From an uncultured bacterium (GTDB lineage Bacteria; Patescibacteriota; Saccharimonadia; UBA4664), in NCBI GenBank assembly GCA_963720265.1, contig CAVRET010000002.1, forward strand, positions 1,006,069 to 1,070,068: a DNA stretch of 64,000 nt. Direction: 5' to 3'. Made by a program: the position numbers and the translations under genes. Under the pieces are notes generated by a model, which saw only the letters and a program-made list of their open reading frames with translations, was not told the DNA's origin and did not search any database. Numbering within the stretch: the first letter of the stretch is position 1; each line of letters begins with the position of its first letter. Below, in pieces: positions 25,988 to 47,849 of this stretch.

Positions 25988-26207
25988 AGACTCCTCCTTG
26001 TTTACTCTACCCTTCCTGTCACTCGAACTTAGTCGCTAGTATTCTGAGAAATTCCTTGGCTTCGGGCTATGGTTCTTATTACAAATCTTTGACAATGTAT
26101 TCGAGCTGGACGGCAGGGTTCGGACACGCGTAGCATGGGGCTGAACGCTTGACATCCATCAACCAAAAACTGTATAGTTTCGAATAAACATAAGAGTTAT
26201 AAAACAA

Positions 26208-27059
26208 ATGCCCAGAAAAACCACCGCCCGCAGTTCCAGGTCGAGACCATCCACTCGCAAAGTGTTTAATAAAGCGTTACTCGCCAGGTTTCGTGGCCGT
26301 TTGTTTACGAGGACTTCGCTGGCGATTTTTTTGGGTCTTTTCGTCGTTATTGGCGCCTACCTCGTGTATAGCGTTAGCCGCGCCTCGTCGGAGCAGCTTG
26401 AATCCGGGGTCAATGGCAATCAAAGTCCTTCATACTGCCTGGATGACACCGGTGGCGGTACTGTGCGCACTGCGGCGTGCAACGGTATGTACGGCCAACA
26501 ATATAGTCTCGTCGGTGATGTCATCCACCTAGGCGGCTATTGCCTCGGGGTATCTGGTGCCAACTCTACTTCAATAGGTAGGTTTCTTGTGGCGGACGGT
26601 TGCTCGCCAACGCCGTGGGGCGCCGTATGGACCCCAAGCGGCAATCGGTTGTTAGATAATCACGCCGATGCTCTCGGCCATGGAACACAATATTGTCTCG
26701 ACGTGTCCGGAAATGTCGCCGGGCACAATGTAGATATTTGGCCTTGCAACGGCGGTTCAAACCAGAACTGGTACGAACAGGCCGTTGGCGGCGGAAGCGG
26801 CGGTAACACACCCCCCGTTACGCCCAAGCCGACCACGCCTGGTCCATGCACGATAGACTGGTATGGAGTGCAATTACCTTGCCAAAGTAGTTTCAATCTC
26901 TCAAGCTATAGCAGTTCAACATCATACAACAGTACTCTCTGTGTTGATCTTCGGGCCTACGAATTTGCTAGCAATAACGCGATCACGCTTCTTGGTCTAA
27001 CGTACGACTCGGCCATATCGCGATACCCAAACTGCTTTAACGCAAATTCATTCCGATAA
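26208..27059 (+). CDS. secreted ricin-B (beta-trefoil, CBM13-like) lectin domain protein
   Basis: 283 aa. N-terminal TM/signal. Repeated C-L-D-x-sn-G...IW.C-NGG-x-NQ-x-W subrepeats (YCLDDTGG..., YCLGVSG..., YCLDVSGNVAGHNVDIWPCNGGSNQNW). Confidence 0.6.
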   Translation: MPRKTTARSSRSRPSTRKVFNKALLARFRGRLFTRTSLAIFLGLFVVIGAYLVYSVSRASSEQLESGVNGNQSPSYCLDDTGGGTVRTAACNGMYGQQYSLVGDVIHLGGYCLGVSGANSTSIGRFLVADGCSPTPWGAVWTPSGNRLLDNHADALGHGTQYCLDVSGNVAGHNVDIWPCNGGSNQNWYEQAVGGGSGGNTPPVTPKPTTPGPCTIDWYGVQLPCQSSFNLSSYSSSTSYNSTLCVDLRAYEFASNNAITLLGLTYDSAISRYPNCFNANSFR

Positions 27060-37141: not shown

Positions 37142-37975
37142 ATGACTATTCGAGATTTTGAACGCGAGTTCCCCGACGACAATGCTTGCTTAGAGTATAT
37201 GTTCAAATTGAAGTTTGCGGATAAGCCTTGCCCGAAGTGTGGTAAGGTTAACGGCTTCTATCGCGTTCGTGCTCGCAAATGCTATGCCTGCTCAGTTTGC
37301 GGCAAGCAAGTTTCCCCAACTGCTGGAACTATCTTTCACAAGTCCGAGACACCGCTTCGGACATGGTTTTACTGCATCTTGCTCATGACCAACGCTAAGA
37401 ACGGTGTAGCGGCCCTGGAGCTGCAACGGCACTTCGGAATGACATATAAGTGCGCGTGGAGAATTGCCCGCCAAATCCGCAAGGTAATGACCGACGAGGG
37501 CGGCGTGTTATCCGGAATTGTCGAGGCTGATGAAACCTACATCGGCGGCAAGCACAAGTTTGACGAGCGTTTTAACTCTAAGACTCCGGTGCTCGGCTTG
37601 GTCGAGCGCGGCGGTTCCGTGAAAGCTAACGCCGTAAACACGGCCAGCGTCAGTAACGCTCGCAATTTCATTAACGCCAACGTAGCGGCCGAAGCCGAGC
37701 TTCATACCGATACCTCACGAATTTACGACCATGTCTCGCGGCTCAGACTGCATCAATCAGTTAACCACGCTGCCCGCGAGTATGCGCGTGGCAATGTCAC
37801 CACAAATACTATTGAGGGTTTTTGGGGTCAGTTGAAGCGCTCTCTGTCGGGGACGTACCATCATGTGAGTCCACAGCATCTACAGCATTACGTTGATGAG
37901 TTCGCGTTTCGCTACTCTCATCGTCACGATGTCCGTCCTCTGTTTTACGCTGTGGTTGATCGGACGCTAGAATAG
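37142..37975 (+). mobile_element. IS1595-family (ISXO2-like) transposase gene
   Basis: 277 aa. N-terminal zinc ribbon CPKCG...CYACSVCGKQ and an ISXO2-like DDE region. A fragment of a related copy lies at 22061-22246. Confidence 0.8.
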
Positions 37976-38671: not shown

Positions 38672-39439
38672 CTAATCGGATTGGATAGGAATTACGTCCA
38701 GCTCCGTTGTTGGTACTTCGGTAATGCCGGACTTGCTGATATGCCAGGCGAATATTTGGCCGCCGATAGTTTGTGGGTAGCCGTCCAGCCTTTGCTTTGT
38801 TACAGATTCTTTCATTGCTCTTTGGATTATCCTAAGAGCCGATTTCGGTGTCAGTCTAACGTCCCTTATTCGTTGGTCGAGAAAATCATCAGCTTGTTTG
38901 TTGTTACCTATGCTGCAGAAGTTCCCCTCGACCAGAGTTACCTTGTAGCCGTTTGCCTCGTCATCAATATGGTATATTTCAACTTCGCCATCTACGCCCA
39001 CTCCTGCTATCAGAAGCTGCATTGATGCCTGGCGGTCGCCTGCGGCTTTCGTCTCATCCACAAGGCGTTTTGTAACACGGGCGGCCTTTCTTGCCACGTC
39101 TTCAACTGAAGCCATCGGATTGCCCTCGCAATAGCCCTGCAAGAACGCATTTATGTTATCAGCTCGCTCCTCGCGCATATAAACCATGGTTCGGCTGAGC
39201 ATTATGCGCTCTGAGACGATGAAAGCTTTGGGGTGCGTATCAAGATATGATAATTCGCCGGTCTCATCGCTGATCCTTTTTGCCAAACCATCGGAGGCAA
39301 CAGTTACGCCGTGACACTGTTTGATGTTTGTTGCCAGTGTCATTGTATCGAGTCGTCCTTTAGGCGCAAGTATTATATCAACATTATCACTTGACGTCAT
39401 GGTACAATCGCCGTGACCAACTATTGCTTGATCGGCCAT
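38672..39439 (-). CDS. hypothetical cytoplasmic protein
   Basis: 255-aa ORF with coding-like composition and no confident motif. Confidence 0.45.
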   Translation of the reverse strand: MADQAIVGHGDCTMTSSDNVDIILAPKGRLDTMTLATNIKQCHGVTVASDGLAKRISDETGELSYLDTHPKAFIVSERIMLSRTMVYMREERADNINAFLQGYCEGNPMASVEDVARKAARVTKRLVDETKAAGDRQASMQLLIAGVGVDGEVEIYHIDDEANGYKVTLVEGNFCSIGNNKQADDFLDQRIRDVRLTPKSALRIIQRAMKESVTKQRLDGYPQTIGGQIFAWHISKSGITEVPTTELDVIPIQSD

Positions 39440-40179: not shown

Positions 40180-40431
40180 CTATCGATAAACGTCCCGTCG
40201 ATGGCCAATACGAATAACTTCAACTACTAATTGCTTATCCTCAATCGTGTAGATTACACGATAATCACCTAGGCGAATTCGCCAAGCGTTTACGCCTGAC
40301 ATCTTCTTTATACGGTTCGGCCGCGGCAATTCCGCCAAGGAGTCAATGACACTCGATACTTGTTTTAGGCTAGCAGCGGGCAATTTTCGCAACTCTTTGG
40401 CAGCACTCGAACGGAATGTGATTTGATACAT
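40180..40431 (-). CDS. relE: RelE/ParE family toxin
   Basis: 83 aa. ...WRIRLGDYRVIYTIEDKQLVVEVIRIGHRRDVY, a typical RelE/ParE C-terminus. Confidence 0.8.
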   Translation of the reverse strand: MYQITFRSSAAKELRKLPAASLKQVSSVIDSLAELPRPNRIKKMSGVNAWRIRLGDYRVIYTIEDKQLVVEVIRIGHRRDVYR

Positions 40432-40437
40432 CCTGCG

Positions 40438-40668
40438 CTAAAGCAGGCCATCTCTAATGAGATCTGCCTTGACCTTGTCCCAAGCAACTAGTGATTCAGA
40501 CTTACGTTCTTCAATCGTCGCAATATCCTGGGCGTCTTCTAATAGCTCAGCCAACTGGTCATTAATTAGCTCTGAGATGGATTTGCCTTGCTCGACTGCC
40601 TCATGTTGTAAATACTTTTTGACATAGGGGTTTAAATATACAGTTGTTCGCTCACTTAGAGACGCCAT
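40438..40668 (-). CDS. ribbon-helix-helix antitoxin paired with RelE
   Basis: 76-aa ORF located 6 nt upstream of the toxin gene. Confidence 0.65.
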   Translation of the reverse strand: MASLSERTTVYLNPYVKKYLQHEAVEQGKSISELINDQLAELLEDAQDIATIEERKSESLVAWDKVKADLIRDGLL

Positions 40669-40762: not shown

Positions 40763-40854
40763 AGGACTTATGCTTAGATAGCGGCTTGGTGGAGCCGTTA
40801 TTTTTTGTTGCGTTTGTTACCCCAGTCTGGACGCTCGAACCGTACCATTTGAAC

Positions 40855-41115
40855 TTACTGGGCCTGGAGAATAGCCAGTGTAGCCTTTACAGAAGGGTTA
40901 TCGCTCGGAAGATAGATGATATGCTCACCATACAATTCTTTGAGTGCCCTAAAGAACTCATCTGCCCAAGAAGGCGAGAGCGAGAGCACACCGGTAAAGT
41001 CAATTTGGATTTCTTTTGTGCCTGGATCTAACGTGGGTCGAATCGCTGCAAATGCCTCCCTCCCGGCTGGCCGGGAAGTTAATACATCTCCGAATTTCTT
41101 TAGTTCAATTCTCAT
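40855..41115 (-). CDS. DUF4325/STAS-like small protein (anti-sigma-antagonist-like)
   Basis: 86-aa ORF located 2 nt downstream of the GHKL gene. Its profile resembles STAS-like DUF4325. Confidence 0.5.
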   Translation of the reverse strand: MRIELKKFGDVLTSRPAGREAFAAIRPTLDPGTKEIQIDFTGVLSLSPSWADEFFRALKELYGEHIIYLPSDNPSVKATLAILQAQ

Positions 41116-41117
41116 GG

Positions 41118-41849
41118 TTAATACTCAATTCTAGCTAATACCCCGCGAACATTGCGATCTGCGAGGGTTACTTTTAGTTTCTTGGAATTATTCTTTTCAA
41201 TTGTGGCGATTGCTATGCCCGATTGTAAAGCGATTCCGATTGGATTTTGGATGGCAACCGTACGCACAAACTTAAGCCCATTCCCTCGCTGCTCGGGTGT
41301 CCTACCTGATACAAACTCAGTCATGGCGACGGTCAAAGCTTCGATGTCATCTTTAAGCCCTGGGCGTACTCTCAATAACGTTGATTTAATACCCACCCCT
41401 CGGTCCGCCAACACAATTACTCGCTTATTCAAATCATACCCGAAGAATAGGCCTGGAATATCGGGCCAGTTCCCAAGATTATGATCGAATGAGTTGTTGC
41501 CAATCTCTCCGGCCACGGCAGTTACAAGAGGTGCTGAGCCAGAAGTTCCAGGATCTCGATCTATAAGGCCTGCCATTCGATCGAGTCTGGCCCTGAACCG
41601 ATCCTGCGTATCGGAATAGTCGGCATCAGCGATAGCTGGCGCAACTTCGCTTGCGGCCCAGACTTGAGCCAGGCTAAAGAGTTCGGCATTATAGCGTTCA
41701 AGCATATCTCGGTGATAGTATCTGTGGCCTCCCGGACTTTTTAGTGCGGGCAATTTGCCCGATACATCCCAGCGACGCAGAGTCATCACTGTGACACCCA
41801 GGTACTTGGCGGCTTCACCTATTGAGATGAGGTTGTTATTTTTCGTCAT
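41118..41849 (-). CDS. MerR/excisionase-type HTH fused to a GHKL (HATPase_c, RsbW/SpoIIAB-like) domain
   Basis: N-terminal ISIGEAAKYLGVTVMTLRRWDVSGKLPA (HTH_17/MerR). C-terminal N-box EIGNNSFDHN, G1 DRGVGI and G2 GNGLKFV. Confidence 0.6.
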   Translation of the reverse strand: MTKNNNLISIGEAAKYLGVTVMTLRRWDVSGKLPALKSPGGHRYYHRDMLERYNAELFSLAQVWAASEVAPAIADADYSDTQDRFRARLDRMAGLIDRDPGTSGSAPLVTAVAGEIGNNSFDHNLGNWPDIPGLFFGYDLNKRVIVLADRGVGIKSTLLRVRPGLKDDIEALTVAMTEFVSGRTPEQRGNGLKFVRTVAIQNPIGIALQSGIAIATIEKNNSKKLKVTLADRNVRGVLARIEY

Positions 41850-42134
41850 GTATAGAAATTACCTCAAAACTATACAATTTGTCAAATATCTATACATTCT
41901 TTATTGATTCCTCGGTATTTGTATACTTTTGGAGAATCTTAGTGCCCCTTTGCTATCTTGCCCTTGAGCAAATAAGTTCTAACGTCGTCCGCTATGCGGA
42001 TCACACGGCGCCAATAGGAGAGGGCGCCCGGGCACAGAGATTTGCATAATGGCAACGTCACTCCATGAGGCTGGTTTAGAGGCGCTACTTTTACTCCAAC
42101 GCCGGCGAGTTCCGGGGATAATACAATCATTGGC

Positions 42135-44367: not shown

Positions 44368-44712
44368 ATGGCTCCGCCACAGGAACATGAAACAGAATAT
44401 GTTAGCTTACTCGGTACTGGGGAGGATCGGGTGGTTACTCGCTTCCGCAGGCTGGGCAAGGTGGCGATCGAATTTTCAGTTGTATACGAAGCTCTAATTG
44501 GCGGTAAGTGGCGCAAAGTTACCGCTTTCGATAACGCCCATGACTCGGAACCGCATCAGCGTATTTGCCGTATTTCGAGCCCAGAATATAAAGTACTATT
44601 CCCGTGGTTGGATTCGAACCAGGCGCTGACCGAATCCAAACGAATCATCCGCGTCAACTACCAGAAAATGCGCGCAAACTATCTATATACTAAGCATAAG
44701 AGGTTACAATGA
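44368..44712 (+). CDS. hypothetical protein, upstream member of an overlapping gene pair
   Basis: 114 aa. Overlaps the next ORF (ATGATGG). Confidence 0.4.
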   Translation: MAPPQEHETEYVSLLGTGEDRVVTRFRRLGKVAIEFSVVYEALIGGKWRKVTAFDNAHDSEPHQRICRISSPEYKVLFPWLDSNQALTESKRIIRVNYQKMRANYLYTKHKRLQ

Positions 44713-44966
44713 TGGCAATGGACAAAGCATTCATAGACAAGAACGTCGAGCTTTCCCTCGAGTTAGACAGTTACCTGGCTGAACATTTTGACTTGTATGA
44801 GCACATTCCTAACGGTGCGCTTGTGATAATTACCGTCAAAGCAGATGACGATTTCAACTCTAAGAGCCTGAGCCTTGTACGCAAGTCTCGCTCGAAGCGC
44901 CCCGTGGTTGAGGCTGAGAAGTCCGGTAGCGTTTGGACGTTGCGCCCTTTGGCGGCTGCCGCTTAG
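44709..44966 (+). CDS. hypothetical small protein, downstream member of the pair
   Basis: 85-aa ORF followed by a terminator. Confidence 0.4.
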   Translation: MMAMDKAFIDKNVELSLELDSYLAEHFDLYEHIPNGALVIITVKADDDFNSKSLSLVRKSRSKRPVVEAEKSGSVWTLRPLAAAA

Positions 44967-45389: not shown

Positions 45390-46199
45390 ATGTCAAAGCG
45401 TACCTTCTACTTGGTACCGCAACAATACCAATGGCTATCCCAGGCACTACCTGCGCCCGTAGCCAAGACCAAGCCGCCGGTGGCAAACGAAGAGCTACTC
45501 GGTGGTATTTTGTTTGTGCTCAAAACTGGCAGCCGGTGGCAGGATATCCCAACTACCATCTGTCCGCATGACCCCAGCACCTGCTGGCGCCGACTCAGCT
45601 TTTGGCGTGGCCGAGGAGCGCTGGTCGGGACTTGGCGTGAGGTTCTCGGACTGCTCGACCGGCAAGGCAAAGTCGACCTGTCACTCGGCGCGTTAGATGG
45701 TTCGCTCGTCCAGTCACCGGCTTTTAAGGATGGCACTGGTTACTCCGGCAAACACCACCGGACTGGCACCAATATTTCGCTTGTGACTGACAAACAAGGC
45801 TTGCCACTGGCCAACGTCCTGGCTAAAGGCAACCGTCATGACCCGACCAATGCCGAGGCCACTATCCGGAAGATTCGCGTGGGTGCTAAGCGGCGGGTTA
45901 AACAACTCAACGCCGACAAAGGGTACGACTCTCGTACCTTCCGGACTGCCTTACGTAAGCGCGGCATTAAGGCCAATATCCCTGAGCGCATATTCAAGAA
46001 GCGGCGCAAACGCGGCCGCAAGCCCAGTTACGACAAAGCAACGGCCAAATTCCGGGCCTTTGTCGAGCGCACTAATGCCTGGCTAAAATACTTCCGTAAG
46101 TTACGTTACCGGTGGGAACGAAAGAAAAGCATGTTTCAGGCCTTTGTTGATCTGGCCTGTCTGCTTATCTGTTTGCGGCGGGTTGGAGATATGCAATGA
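45390..46199 (+). mobile_element. IS5-family (DDE_Tnp_1) transposase gene
   Basis: 269 aa. GAGGAA SD upstream. Conserved IS5 blocks LDGS..., LVTDKQGLPL and NADKGYDS. Confidence 0.8.
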
Positions 46200-46658: not shown

Positions 46659-47849
46659 TCAGAGAACCTGACTGGAAGTGTAGGGCTGGACGCAGCCCTT
46701 CTTGCAGTTGTTGTGTACCGGTCGTTGGTTGCGGGGCCTGACCTGCCTGTGTGCCACCTGGGGGCGGCACTGGGACCGGCAGGTGTTGGAGCAGCAGACC
46801 CGCTTGGACTTAGGCGGCGGGCAGTAGCTGCACTTGTTGTTGACCCACTTGTAGTACTTGGTCGTGCAGGGCGCGGGCTTCAGCTTGTGCACGACCACGA
46901 CCGTCGTGACCACGTGCTTCACCGGCGGGCAGTAGGTGCACACGTTGTTGACCCACTTGTAGTACTTGGCCGTGCAGGGCGCGGGCTTCGGCTTGCACAG
47001 GACGCACTTGCCGTTCACCTTGACGGTTCCCTTGACGCACTTCAGCGGCGTGTTGTGATGCACGACCACCTTCGTGCACGTGCAGCGGACCACGGGAGTG
47101 ACAACACGCTTCGTGTGGTACACGACGACCACCGGCGTGGACGGCCCGGTGCAGAACCCGTTGACCAGCTTCCATCCCTTGATGGTACAGGGGTTGTGGC
47201 CTATCTTGTGGACGGCCACAGGCTTCGGCGGGCACTTCACGCACTGGCCGTTCACGAACTGGTATCCGTAGTGGTTGCCCGAGCAGTTCGGGTTGTGAGA
47301 CACGACCGGGCGGCAGTTGTTGTCGCCGTAGCCGTTCGGCGGGCCGCGGCTCCCGTAGGGGCTATTGCAGCTCACGGGCGGCCGGTTCACCGGGCACTTC
47401 GGCTGTATCCACCCCATCTGCTGCGGCGGGCTGGACCCGTTGTTCGGCGGTCCCGTGGACACGCCGCCGTACTGGCCACCTCCCTGAGCGGCCGTGACGT
47501 TGGAATCGGTCGAGTAACCCTTGTGAGGGTTTCCCTGCTGGTCGTTGAGGCCGGGGCAGTCGCCGCCGTTCGGCTGGGCCGGGGTGCTGATGCCGGTGTT
47601 GTCGCCGGTCAGGGCGAAGTTCCCGATGCCAGAGTGGCTCCCGAAAGCGCCGAGAAGGAGCATGGCGCCGCCGGCCGCGATGGCGACAGGCAGAACAAAG
47701 CGGGCAAGTAGCCAGCGCGCGTAGGCGGGCATCCCGCTGCCACGCGGCGGCCTAGCCACCAACGTACGGATCTTATGCATGGAACAACAGCCTTCCTGAA
47801 TCGGTTCCTGCGGTTTTTTCGATGAACTACGAACAACGAACTCGAACAC
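46659..47849 (-). CDS. secreted/membrane-anchored cysteine-rich repeat protein (very GC-rich)
   Basis: 396 aa. N-terminal TM. Tandem modules CxxKPKPAPCT(A/T)KYYKWVNN(V/K)C(T/S)YCPP. The plus-strand ORF 46635-47711 has antisense-artefact composition. Confidence 0.5.
   Translation of the reverse strand: MFEFVVRSSSKKPQEPIQEGCCSMHKIRTLVARPPRGSGMPAYARWLLARFVLPVAIAAGGAMLLLGAFGSHSGIGNFALTGDNTGISTPAQPNGGDCPGLNDQQGNPHKGYSTDSNVTAAQGGGQYGGVSTGPPNNGSSPPQQMGWIQPKCPVNRPPVSCNSPYGSRGPPNGYGDNNCRPVVSHNPNCSGNHYGYQFVNGQCVKCPPKPVAVHKIGHNPCTIKGWKLVNGFCTGPSTPVVVVYHTKRVVTPVVRCTCTKVVVHHNTPLKCVKGTVKVNGKCVLCKPKPAPCTAKYYKWVNNVCTYCPPVKHVVTTVVVVHKLKPAPCTTKYYKWVNNKCSYCPPPKSKRVCCSNTCRSQCRPQVAHRQVRPRNQRPVHNNCKKGCVQPYTSSQVL

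Follow-up and report, generated by a model that had tools for sequence, protein, structure and literature searches.

A stretch of 64,000 nucleotides (nt) from an uncultured bacterium of the Patescibacteriota (GenBank assembly GCA_963720265.1, contig CAVRET010000002.1), here called the window and always meant at its full length, contains a minus-strand pair of open reading frames (ORFs) that fills positions 40855-41849 exactly. The larger gene encodes a protein of 243 amino acids (aa) in which a MerR/excisionase-type helix-turn-helix (HTH) is joined to a GHKL kinase-like domain, and the smaller one encodes an 86-aa protein of the STAS-like DUF4325 family. Both genes start with ATG, and their junction, TAA-CC-ATG in gene orientation, leaves a gap of 2 nt, in agreement with an earlier reading of these letters made without database searches (the sequence-only reading). 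The new comparisons indicate that this cassette is an undescribed, stripped-down relative of the CapK/CapS and VapK/VapS switches, that it is found almost only in the bacteria of the candidate phyla radiation (CPR), whose genomes are tiny, and that it appears to control its own promoter. In the reading that we favour with some reserve, it is probably a self-contained, autoregulated kinase-substrate pair of the CapK/VapK-CapS/VapS kind that operates without an effector gene. The new findings comprise the architecture of the operator, the covariation of HTH residue 22 with the operator sequence and the modular nature of the N-terminal DNA-binding domain.

The two reference systems became known no earlier than 2026, as switches that sense DNA damage and control immune operons and a toxin (PMC13373217). 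CapK is a kinase of HTH-STAS-GHKL composition that single-stranded DNA (ssDNA) activates and that phosphorylates its substrate CapS at Ser54 (Chambers et al., EMBO J 2026, PMC13373217). CapS combines a STAS domain with a winged HTH (wHTH) that is functional and binds palindromes, and phosphorylation of this repressor de-represses the adjacent immune operon, while the HTH of CapK is experimentally dispensable (PMC13373217). In the second system, the toxin-antitoxin and anti-phage system VapKSC, VapK (STAS-GHKL) phosphorylates VapS at Ser48 and thereby releases the PIN toxin VapC; VapS, a proven antitoxin, consists of a STAS domain and a C-terminal helix (residues 94-116) that blocks the toxin, and the STAS domain of CapK and VapK helps to form a predicted ssDNA-binding groove (PMC13373217).

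Judged by sequence comparison, the window pair is homologous to the kinase/STAS core of CapK-CapS and VapK-VapS and lacks the defining features of each. The CapK, CapS, VapK and VapS sequences were taken from the supplement of PMC13373217 and aligned by hhalign, with the profile of the family set against single sequences, and the expect values (E) given here are to be read as such pairwise values. Specifically, the kinase profile aligns with VapK at a probability of 90.6% (E 1.3e-6, 31% identity over 126 columns, residues 105-242 against 144-289) and with CapK at E 3.8e-4, in a match that starts at CapK residue 208 and places N119 opposite the essential CapK residue N218. The partner profile aligns with CapS at E 3.8e-5, with S49 opposite the phospho-acceptor S54. 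The classical partner-switching proteins score far lower: SpoIIAB reaches E 0.09, which is not significant although the N and G1 boxes are in register, and SpoIIAA reaches E 0.69, which is not significant either. The sequence-only reading had described the C-terminal domain as RsbW/SpoIIAB-like with N, G1 and G2 boxes; the boxes and the GHKL fold are borne out, but the nearest kin turn out to be VapK and CapK. It had also regarded an HTH tethered to such a kinase as a non-standard regulator architecture, for which CapK now sets a precedent (PMC13373217). Its broader idea of partner switching has become the best reading, as a switch of the kinase/STAS partner type.

The C-terminal region is very likely a divergent GHKL subfamily that current Pfam models miss. 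Residues E115, G117, N119, H123, N124, D149, G151, G153, R183, R188, G189, G191 and L192 show no variation among 42 relatives with identities as low as 28%, and they supply an N box (E115-x3-N119-x3-H123), a G1 box (D149-x-G151-x-G153) and a G2 box (R188-G189-N-G191-L-K, or RGNGLK), with G236 lying in the last strand. An AlphaFold2 model of the 243-aa protein (mean predicted local distance difference test, pLDDT, 75; predicted template-modelling score, pTM, 0.67) shows the order helix-helix-strand-strand-helix-helix-helix-four-strand. When this model was compared with the Protein Data Bank (PDB) by Foldseek, 49 of the top 50 matches were N-domains of Hsp90, TRAP1, GRP94 and GyrB (probability up to 1.0, E 2e-4 to 2.5e-3), and the remaining one was BldC, aligned on the HTH. 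Sub-threshold Pfam matches fall into the expected region in some relatives, namely HATPase_c_2 in 9/42 (best E 0.0021), HATPase_c in 2/42 (best E 5.4e-4) and HATPase_c_5, and VapK and CapK likewise stay below the thresholds of the GHKL profiles. An exhaustive phmmer search with the C-terminal domain yields 288 representatives at 50% identity, which form a compact family. Among the sequences of the PDB, profiles A1 and A2 retrieved matches of the MerR-type HTH only and no GHKL protein.

A scan of one genome per species across 185,579 species matched 600 stretches, among which at least 565 relatives were confirmed, and the locus comparisons reported here use the best 80 of these. Almost all of the 80 loci carry titles of CPR (Patescibacteria) metagenome-assembled genomes, including Saccharimonadales, Parcubacteria-group lineages, WWE3, Gracilibacteria, Peregrinibacteria and others. 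Several loci (L007, L008, L015, L018, L019, L045, L072 and others) bear the titles 'uncultured Gammaproteobacteria', 'Woesearchaeota archaeon' or 'Legionellales'; these may be imprecise names given to bins from metagenomes, or else the cassette has spread beyond the CPR. The two genes are obligatory partners: a homologue of the small gene lies 1-75 nt downstream of the large-gene match in 78/80 loci, in one of them at ~230 nt, and the remaining two loci end at a contig edge, such that pairing is complete wherever it is testable (78/78). The pairwise identities of the two proteins moreover correlate (r = 0.76). The N-terminal domain, in turn, varies among relatives and may be MerR/HTH_17, winged helix (HTH_24/MarR), XRE (HTH_3) or missing, and the DUF4325 gene is kept downstream in all four of these types that were looked up. 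As the pairing persists across N-terminal variants, the GHKL domain and the DUF4325 protein constitute the core and the HTH is an add-on. In L082 (3187-5974), an HTH-less cassette lies between def and fmt, upstream of rpsP and trmD, and its promoter is devoid of TAGAT-type repeats.

The genomic surroundings of the family do not support the defence module that the sequence-only reading had envisaged. Among the flanking ORFs, 304/374 are singletons, the largest cluster has 6 members and no cluster spans more than 4 loci. The downstream neighbour shares the strand of the cassette in 45 loci, with a median gap of 115 nt, and has the opposite orientation in 27; no Pfam family occurs downstream more than twice in 71 loci, and the downstream genes are mostly housekeeping-like, among them GMP synthase, NusA, Fpg, YchF and sugar transferases, next to one PP2C phosphatase and one integrase. 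A conserved third gene or a defence-island setting was therefore rejected. AbiEii and Fic genes neighbour the cassette in a few loci. A pattern scan of 2.9 million IMG/VR viral contigs found no cassette, a tblastn search with the C-terminal domain against 50,697 phage records and 72,556 plasmids found nothing, and neither did a tblastn search with the small protein against the plasmids.

The small protein matches DUF4325, which Pfam describes as STAS-like, with 27.8 bits at a cut-off of 23, and the earlier assignment thus holds. Its AlphaFold2 model (pLDDT 92.8) is a single domain with the order beta-alpha-beta-alpha-beta-alpha, whose best meaningful fold match is RsbS (6jhk_B; TM-score 0.59, probability 0.75, E 0.35, which is not significant), followed by a Dyadobacter STAS protein and by RsbS/RsbR chains of the stressosome. 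Residues G9, L12, S14, R15, G18, E20, F40, P48, S49, E53, F54, N73 and S75 are invariant in 78/78 orthologues, while D39 and D52 are identical in 77/78. Ser49 opens helix alpha2 (residues 48-62), and the register of secondary structure suggests that it occupies the position of the SpoIIAA phospho-serine. For DUF4325, the literature searched yielded three passing mentions only. An older remark couples the PIN.4 group of VapC-type PIN proteins to DUF4325 genes, and this coupling is explained by VapS being a strong member of the family (62.7 bits). In the Francisella prophage vB_FhiM_KIRK (PMC7924643), a hypothetical protein of 293 aa is followed by a DUF4325 protein of 112 aa, between a CI-type repressor and an integrase, and the two could represent a further pair of kinase and STAS protein, carried by a prophage.

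The N-terminal DNA-binding domain of the large protein is firmly placed. Residues 8-53 match the Pfam families MerR (40.6 bits, cut-off 28.2), HTH_17 (40.6, cut-off 27) and MerR_1 (34.7, cut-off 21.6) as well as the NCBIfam excisionase domain (36.9 bits, cut-off 28.8), as the sequence-only reading had proposed, and the best PDB matches of the HTH, by sequence and by fold, are the BldC structures 6amk and 6ama. The NCBIfam model HTH_BldC itself scores 29.1 on the 243-aa protein against a cut-off of 77. PADLOC matched the HTH (mad1) and nothing in the GHKL domain or the small protein. The linker to the GHKL domain comprises only ~25 residues (54-77) and forms one helix, in which W64 is nearly invariant among relatives; a correspondence with CapK W68 would be speculative.

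Most loci have, upstream of the large gene, two to four direct copies of a 9-mer whose form depends on the lineage, TGTATAGAT, TGCATAGAT or (T/A)GGTAGAT, with the consensus TG[T/C]ATAGAT. At least three direct copies, with 1 mismatch allowed, are present in 51/78 loci as compared to 1/78 shuffled controls, and the copies are in phase: their spacing peaks sharply at 10 and 20-21 nt, which equals one or two turns of the helix. In 41/78 loci there is a TTGAC -35 element; a repeat core begins 6-9 nt upstream of it in 31/41 and another lies inside the spacer in 28/41. In 28/41 the -35 element begins 35-41 nt before the ATG, which implies an mRNA that is leaderless or nearly so. In the window, two direct repeats of TGTATAG with a spacing of 20 nt occupy 41896-41890 and 41876-41870 on the minus strand and flank a -35 box, TTGACA, at 41885-41880; the -35 and -10 elements were assigned by eye, and a consensus scanner made no such call. 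An inverted copy on the plus strand (41849-41855) overlaps the ATG, and an additional plus-strand copy, TGTATAC, lies at 41920-41926. Three of the 9 TGTATAG sites in the window fall within 48 nt at the cassette promoter, which is also the only place in the window with a perfect two-copy site. Other candidate operator sites in the window were weak matches with 3 mismatches and were taken as chance. Two plus-strand TGTATAG copies at 26171-26177 and 26365-26371, 194 nt apart, are probably chance as well, since their spacing is off the operator pattern.

One position of the HTH varies with the form of the repeats. Residue 22, a Met in the window protein, begins the recognition helix immediately ahead of an invariant TLRRW and is the position expected to read bases. 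Its mutual information with the operator class, a value inflated by shared ancestry, is 1.2 bits and the highest of 243 positions, with the next at 0.67: the residue is D with TGCATAG in 38/39 loci, N with GTAGAT in 5/5, and A, M, Q or T with TGTATAG. Two relatives with other N-terminal domains carry other sites at the same place in the promoter. In the one example of the XRE variant (L087, 2960-2990), a palindrome, AAACTATATATAGTTT, directly follows TTGACA instead of direct repeats, and in the one example of the winged-helix variant (L086, 2930-3000) the palindrome ATATAGT-N6-ACTATAT takes their place. We infer that the HTH binds its own promoter. BldC binds direct repeats head-to-tail, and as BldC is the best PDB match of the HTH, the cassette protein probably binds in the same manner.

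These data are compatible with a model in which the 243-aa protein would bind, via its BldC-like HTH, the in-phase TGTATAG repeats that extend over the -35 element, the spacer and the start of the probably leaderless transcript, and in which this occupancy would repress the operon. The GHKL domain is predicted to bind ATP and to dock the 86-aa DUF4325 partner, whose invariant Ser49 may then be phosphorylated, by analogy with CapS S54 as the target of CapK and VapS S48 as the target of VapK. Partner binding on the one hand and phospho-release on the other could toggle the kinase's oligomeric or DNA-binding state, and the same partner switch might free either protein for a target encoded elsewhere, as the possible output. 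The input signal need not be ssDNA, since the kinase lacks the STAS domain that helps to form the predicted groove.

Several observations weigh against this model. No Pfam, NCBIfam or PADLOC model matches the C-terminal 190 residues of the window protein at E<=1, such that the GHKL profile check that the sequence-only reading had proposed fails for this protein alone, whereas the motifs of the family, the fold search and the profile-profile comparison identify the domain. The Foldseek values for the full-length model, E ~1e-4 to 1e-3 and TM-scores of 0.25-0.37, are modest, and the low TM-scores stem from the use of the whole two-domain model. For the small protein, no PDB fold match is significant (best E 0.33) and no similarity to SpoIIAA was found; its A3 profile, searched against PDB sequences, retrieved no STAS protein and showed no similarity to any chain. 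The partner profile aligns with VapS (E 3.2e-4) over the N-terminal 45 columns only, and in a gap-free alignment made by hand VapS S48 stands opposite P48 rather than S49. To these points must be added the pairwise nature of the hhalign values and the phylogenetic confound in the covariation of residue 22, both mentioned above. The -10 element in the window, GTAATT/TAATTT at ~41862-41856, is weak. As HTH-less variants exist, DNA binding cannot serve as the essential output, and the surroundings of the cassette contain no recurrent phosphatase, effector or target, with PP2C downstream in 1/71 loci.

An alternative that we consider unlikely is that the cassette constitutes a toxin-antitoxin (TA) or abortive-infection module, in which one partner inhibits growth when free, for instance as a kinase that hits an essential target, the other neutralizes it, and the HTH provides conditional autoregulation as in type II TA systems. 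A small, apparently translationally coupled two-gene operon with an operator over its own promoter would fit this description, as would its patchy distribution in variable genomic contexts, the position of the window copy beside a ParE/ribbon-helix-helix (RHH) pair between insertion sequence (IS) elements, the occasional AbiEii and Fic neighbours, and the proven antitoxin role of VapS, itself a DUF4325 protein (PMC13373217). Yet the pair is joined by no toxin-type domain, whether PIN or similar, in 71 loci, the 25 families listed (of 99) for these related loci do not include PIN, and no PIN gene lies beside the pair in the window. The partner furthermore lacks the C-terminal helix that VapS needs against VapC, many copies reside among housekeeping genes, such as between def and fmt, the scanned plasmids, phages and viral contigs yielded none, and the match in PADLOC was confined to the HTH. 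GHKL kinases are not known to act as toxins.

Switching of the classical RsbW/RsbV type, which is quite unlikely, would assign the DNA-binding domain a role in setting dosage only, while the GHKL protein sequesters a sigma factor or regulator encoded elsewhere until the unphosphorylated STAS partner releases it. The gene pair of a GHKL and a STAS protein with a conserved Ser is a hallmark of partner switching, among the meaningful fold matches of the partner RsbS ranks best, the weak HATPase_c_2 matches in 9/42 members (best E 0.0021) point in this direction, and the HTH-less variants would suit an output by protein sequestration. Against this stand the absence of an adjacent sigma factor, the single PP2C gene downstream in 71 loci, and the matches to SpoIIAB and SpoIIAA, which at E 0.09 and 0.69 are much weaker than those to VapK and CapS at 1.3e-6 and 3.8e-5; this explanation overlaps the favoured one rather than excluding it. 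A further possibility, very improbable in our view, is that the GHKL domain is an ATPase and not a protein kinase, that is, a MutL/MORC/GyrB-like, ATP-driven dimerizing clamp that the HTH brings to DNA and the DUF4325 protein regulates. Its best Foldseek matches are indeed ATPase domains of Hsp90, TRAP1 and GyrB and not kinases, and the N box has the form E-x3-N-S-x-D, which we take to resemble that of MutL/Hsp90-type ATPases. The domain, however, spans only ~165 aa without a transducer or second domain, by sequence it is nearest to the kinases VapK and CapK, and it is obligatorily paired with a STAS-like protein that bears an invariant Ser.

The favoured kinase-substrate model also permits a bolder extension, to which we assign a small chance of being correct: the kinase itself would be a transcription factor, the bare STAS partner a co-repressor or anti-repressor controlled by phosphorylation, and the repeat arrays, read through the code of residue 22, would mark out a regulon that reaches past the promoter of the cassette itself. 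CPR bacteria have few conventional regulators. If the extension were true, the cassette would be a portable, stress- or phage-responsive switch of CPR bacteria that requires no separate sensor or effector domain.

Coordinates of the cassette, its parts and the mobile and toxin-antitoxin genes around it, as positions in the window
Feature	Position	Strand	Remarks
Gene for the 243-aa HTH-GHKL kinase-like protein (CapK/VapK-like, without STAS domain)	41118..41849	-	end coordinate includes the stop codon
Gene for the 86-aa DUF4325/STAS-like partner (VapS/CapS-like, without wHTH and without C-terminal tail)	40855..41115	-	
MerR/excisionase-type (HTH_17, BldC-like) DNA-binding domain, residues 8-53	41691..41828	-	Pfam and NCBIfam matches
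Predicted GHKL (Bergerat-fold) ATP-binding/kinase domain, residues ~78-243	41121..41618	-	motifs, fold search, hhalign
Putative promoter and operator of the cassette	41850..41926	-	repeats, -35/-10 read from sequence
Codon of invariant Ser49 of the 86-aa partner	40971-40969	-	
RHH/DUF6290-like antitoxin (76 aa) and RelE/ParE-superfamily toxin (83 aa, E 1.3e-14)	40180-40668	-	Pfam; downstream of the cassette
IS1595-family transposase gene	37142-37975	+	flanks the region
IS5/DDE_Tnp_1-family transposase gene	45390-46199	+	flanks the region

Within the window, the cassette sits in a variable, IS-rich stretch, which is not a general property of the family. The GC content drops to 45-47% at 40-42 kb from ~55% elsewhere, and DNA similarity to other loci is limited to 41901-40868, that is, to the promoter and both genes. 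The toxin-antitoxin neighbour and the mobile setting that the sequence-only reading had noticed are both present, in the form of the ParE/RHH pair and the two transposase genes. The ParE/RHH pair is probably independent of the cassette, as it has a promoter-like site of its own (TTGACG-17-TATTAT at 40719-40691) and no TGTATAG repeat. No sigma factor is encoded among the ten ORFs between 36.5 and 46.2 kb that were scanned with Pfam, in line with the sequence-only reading, and the upstream neighbour, a 629-aa gene that this reading took for a surface-protein gene, has no Pfam match to bear this out. A terminator-like hairpin at 40776-40803, the sole one of its kind, was rejected as belonging to the cassette, for it lies on the plus strand and no T-run follows it when read in the orientation of the cassette.

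Other genes in the vicinity are recorded here for their own sake. Beside the IS5 transposase gene, a TA-like-looking pair at 44368-44966 (plus strand) encodes a DUF7718 protein (114 aa) and a DUF5647 protein (85 aa) with a 4-nt overlap. At 38672-39439 (minus strand), a 255-aa protein matches the proteasome-subunit (Ntn-hydrolase) family of Pfam (E 3.5e-8) and is adjoined by a 187-aa protein that is rich in Ser, Thr and Pro and has a hydrophobic N-terminal segment. Finally, a Cys-rich protein of 396 aa at 46659-47849 (minus strand) contains repeated KYYKWVNN-C-YCPP units, and a 358-aa ORF occupies the opposite strand of the same stretch.

The findings extend the recently described switches in two directions. 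Specifically, they indicate that the kinase/STAS core also exists alone, without an effector gene and without the STAS domain of CapK and VapK, and that the system has been rewired such that the DNA-binding domain resides on the kinase and not on the substrate. Databases hold more than 4700 relatives of the large protein and 430 of the small one, which shows that the two ORFs are not chance. For relatives of the large protein, the most informative annotations are 'excisionase family' and 'MerR family', and the family as a whole appears under 'excisionase/MerR/helix-turn-helix' and 'DUF4325' only. Since Pfam does not recognize the GHKL domain, thousands of proteins could receive a new annotation. 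The conserved operator arrays, together with the tie of residue 22 to the third base of the repeat, furthermore offer a specificity rule that is directly testable.

Among known systems, VapKSC and CapK-CapS come closest to the cassette. The N box E-I-x-x-N-S-F-[DE]-H is the same in VapK and in the cassette kinase, and the GHKL domains are homologous along their whole length; VapS and the cassette partner share the DUF4325 family and a conserved Ser that opens helix alpha2. The differences are equally clear: VapK has an N-terminal STAS domain where the cassette kinase has an HTH, VapS measures 116 aa with its inhibitory C-terminal helix whereas the partner measures 86 aa without it, the VapC (PIN) toxin gene has no counterpart in the cassette, and VapKSC occurs in Proteobacteria, the cassette in CPR bacteria. 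With CapK-CapS, the cassette has in common the N-terminal HTH and the GHKL domain, the gene order of kinase then substrate and, as far as the repeats suggest, an autoregulated promoter. CapK, however, is an HTH-STAS-GHKL protein of 368 aa as opposed to the 243 aa of the HTH-GHKL kinase, and CapS carries the repressor function in its wHTH, while the sole DNA-binding domain of the cassette is on the kinase. CapS recognizes palindromes, in contrast to the in-phase direct repeats of the cassette, and CapKS lies upstream of immune operons (348/443 cases; PMC13373217), whereas no conserved gene follows the cassette.

More distant systems are resembled in parts. The SpoIIAB-SpoIIAA and RsbW-RsbV pairs likewise unite a small GHKL domain of the Ser-kinase type with a single-domain partner of STAS or, for the cassette, probable STAS fold whose Ser starts helix alpha2, but the cassette operon includes neither a sigma factor nor a PP2C phosphatase, and here an HTH is fused to the kinase. 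MerR transcription factors share the HTH, yet their C-terminal part is a dimerization coiled coil with an effector domain and not a GHKL domain, and their operator is a palindrome within a spacer of 19-20 bp, as compared to direct repeats with a spacer of 17-18 nt in those cassette loci that were read by eye. BldC of Streptomyces, a MerR-like HTH protein without an effector domain, is a stand-alone protein of ~68 aa, whereas in the cassette the same type of HTH is fused to a kinase.

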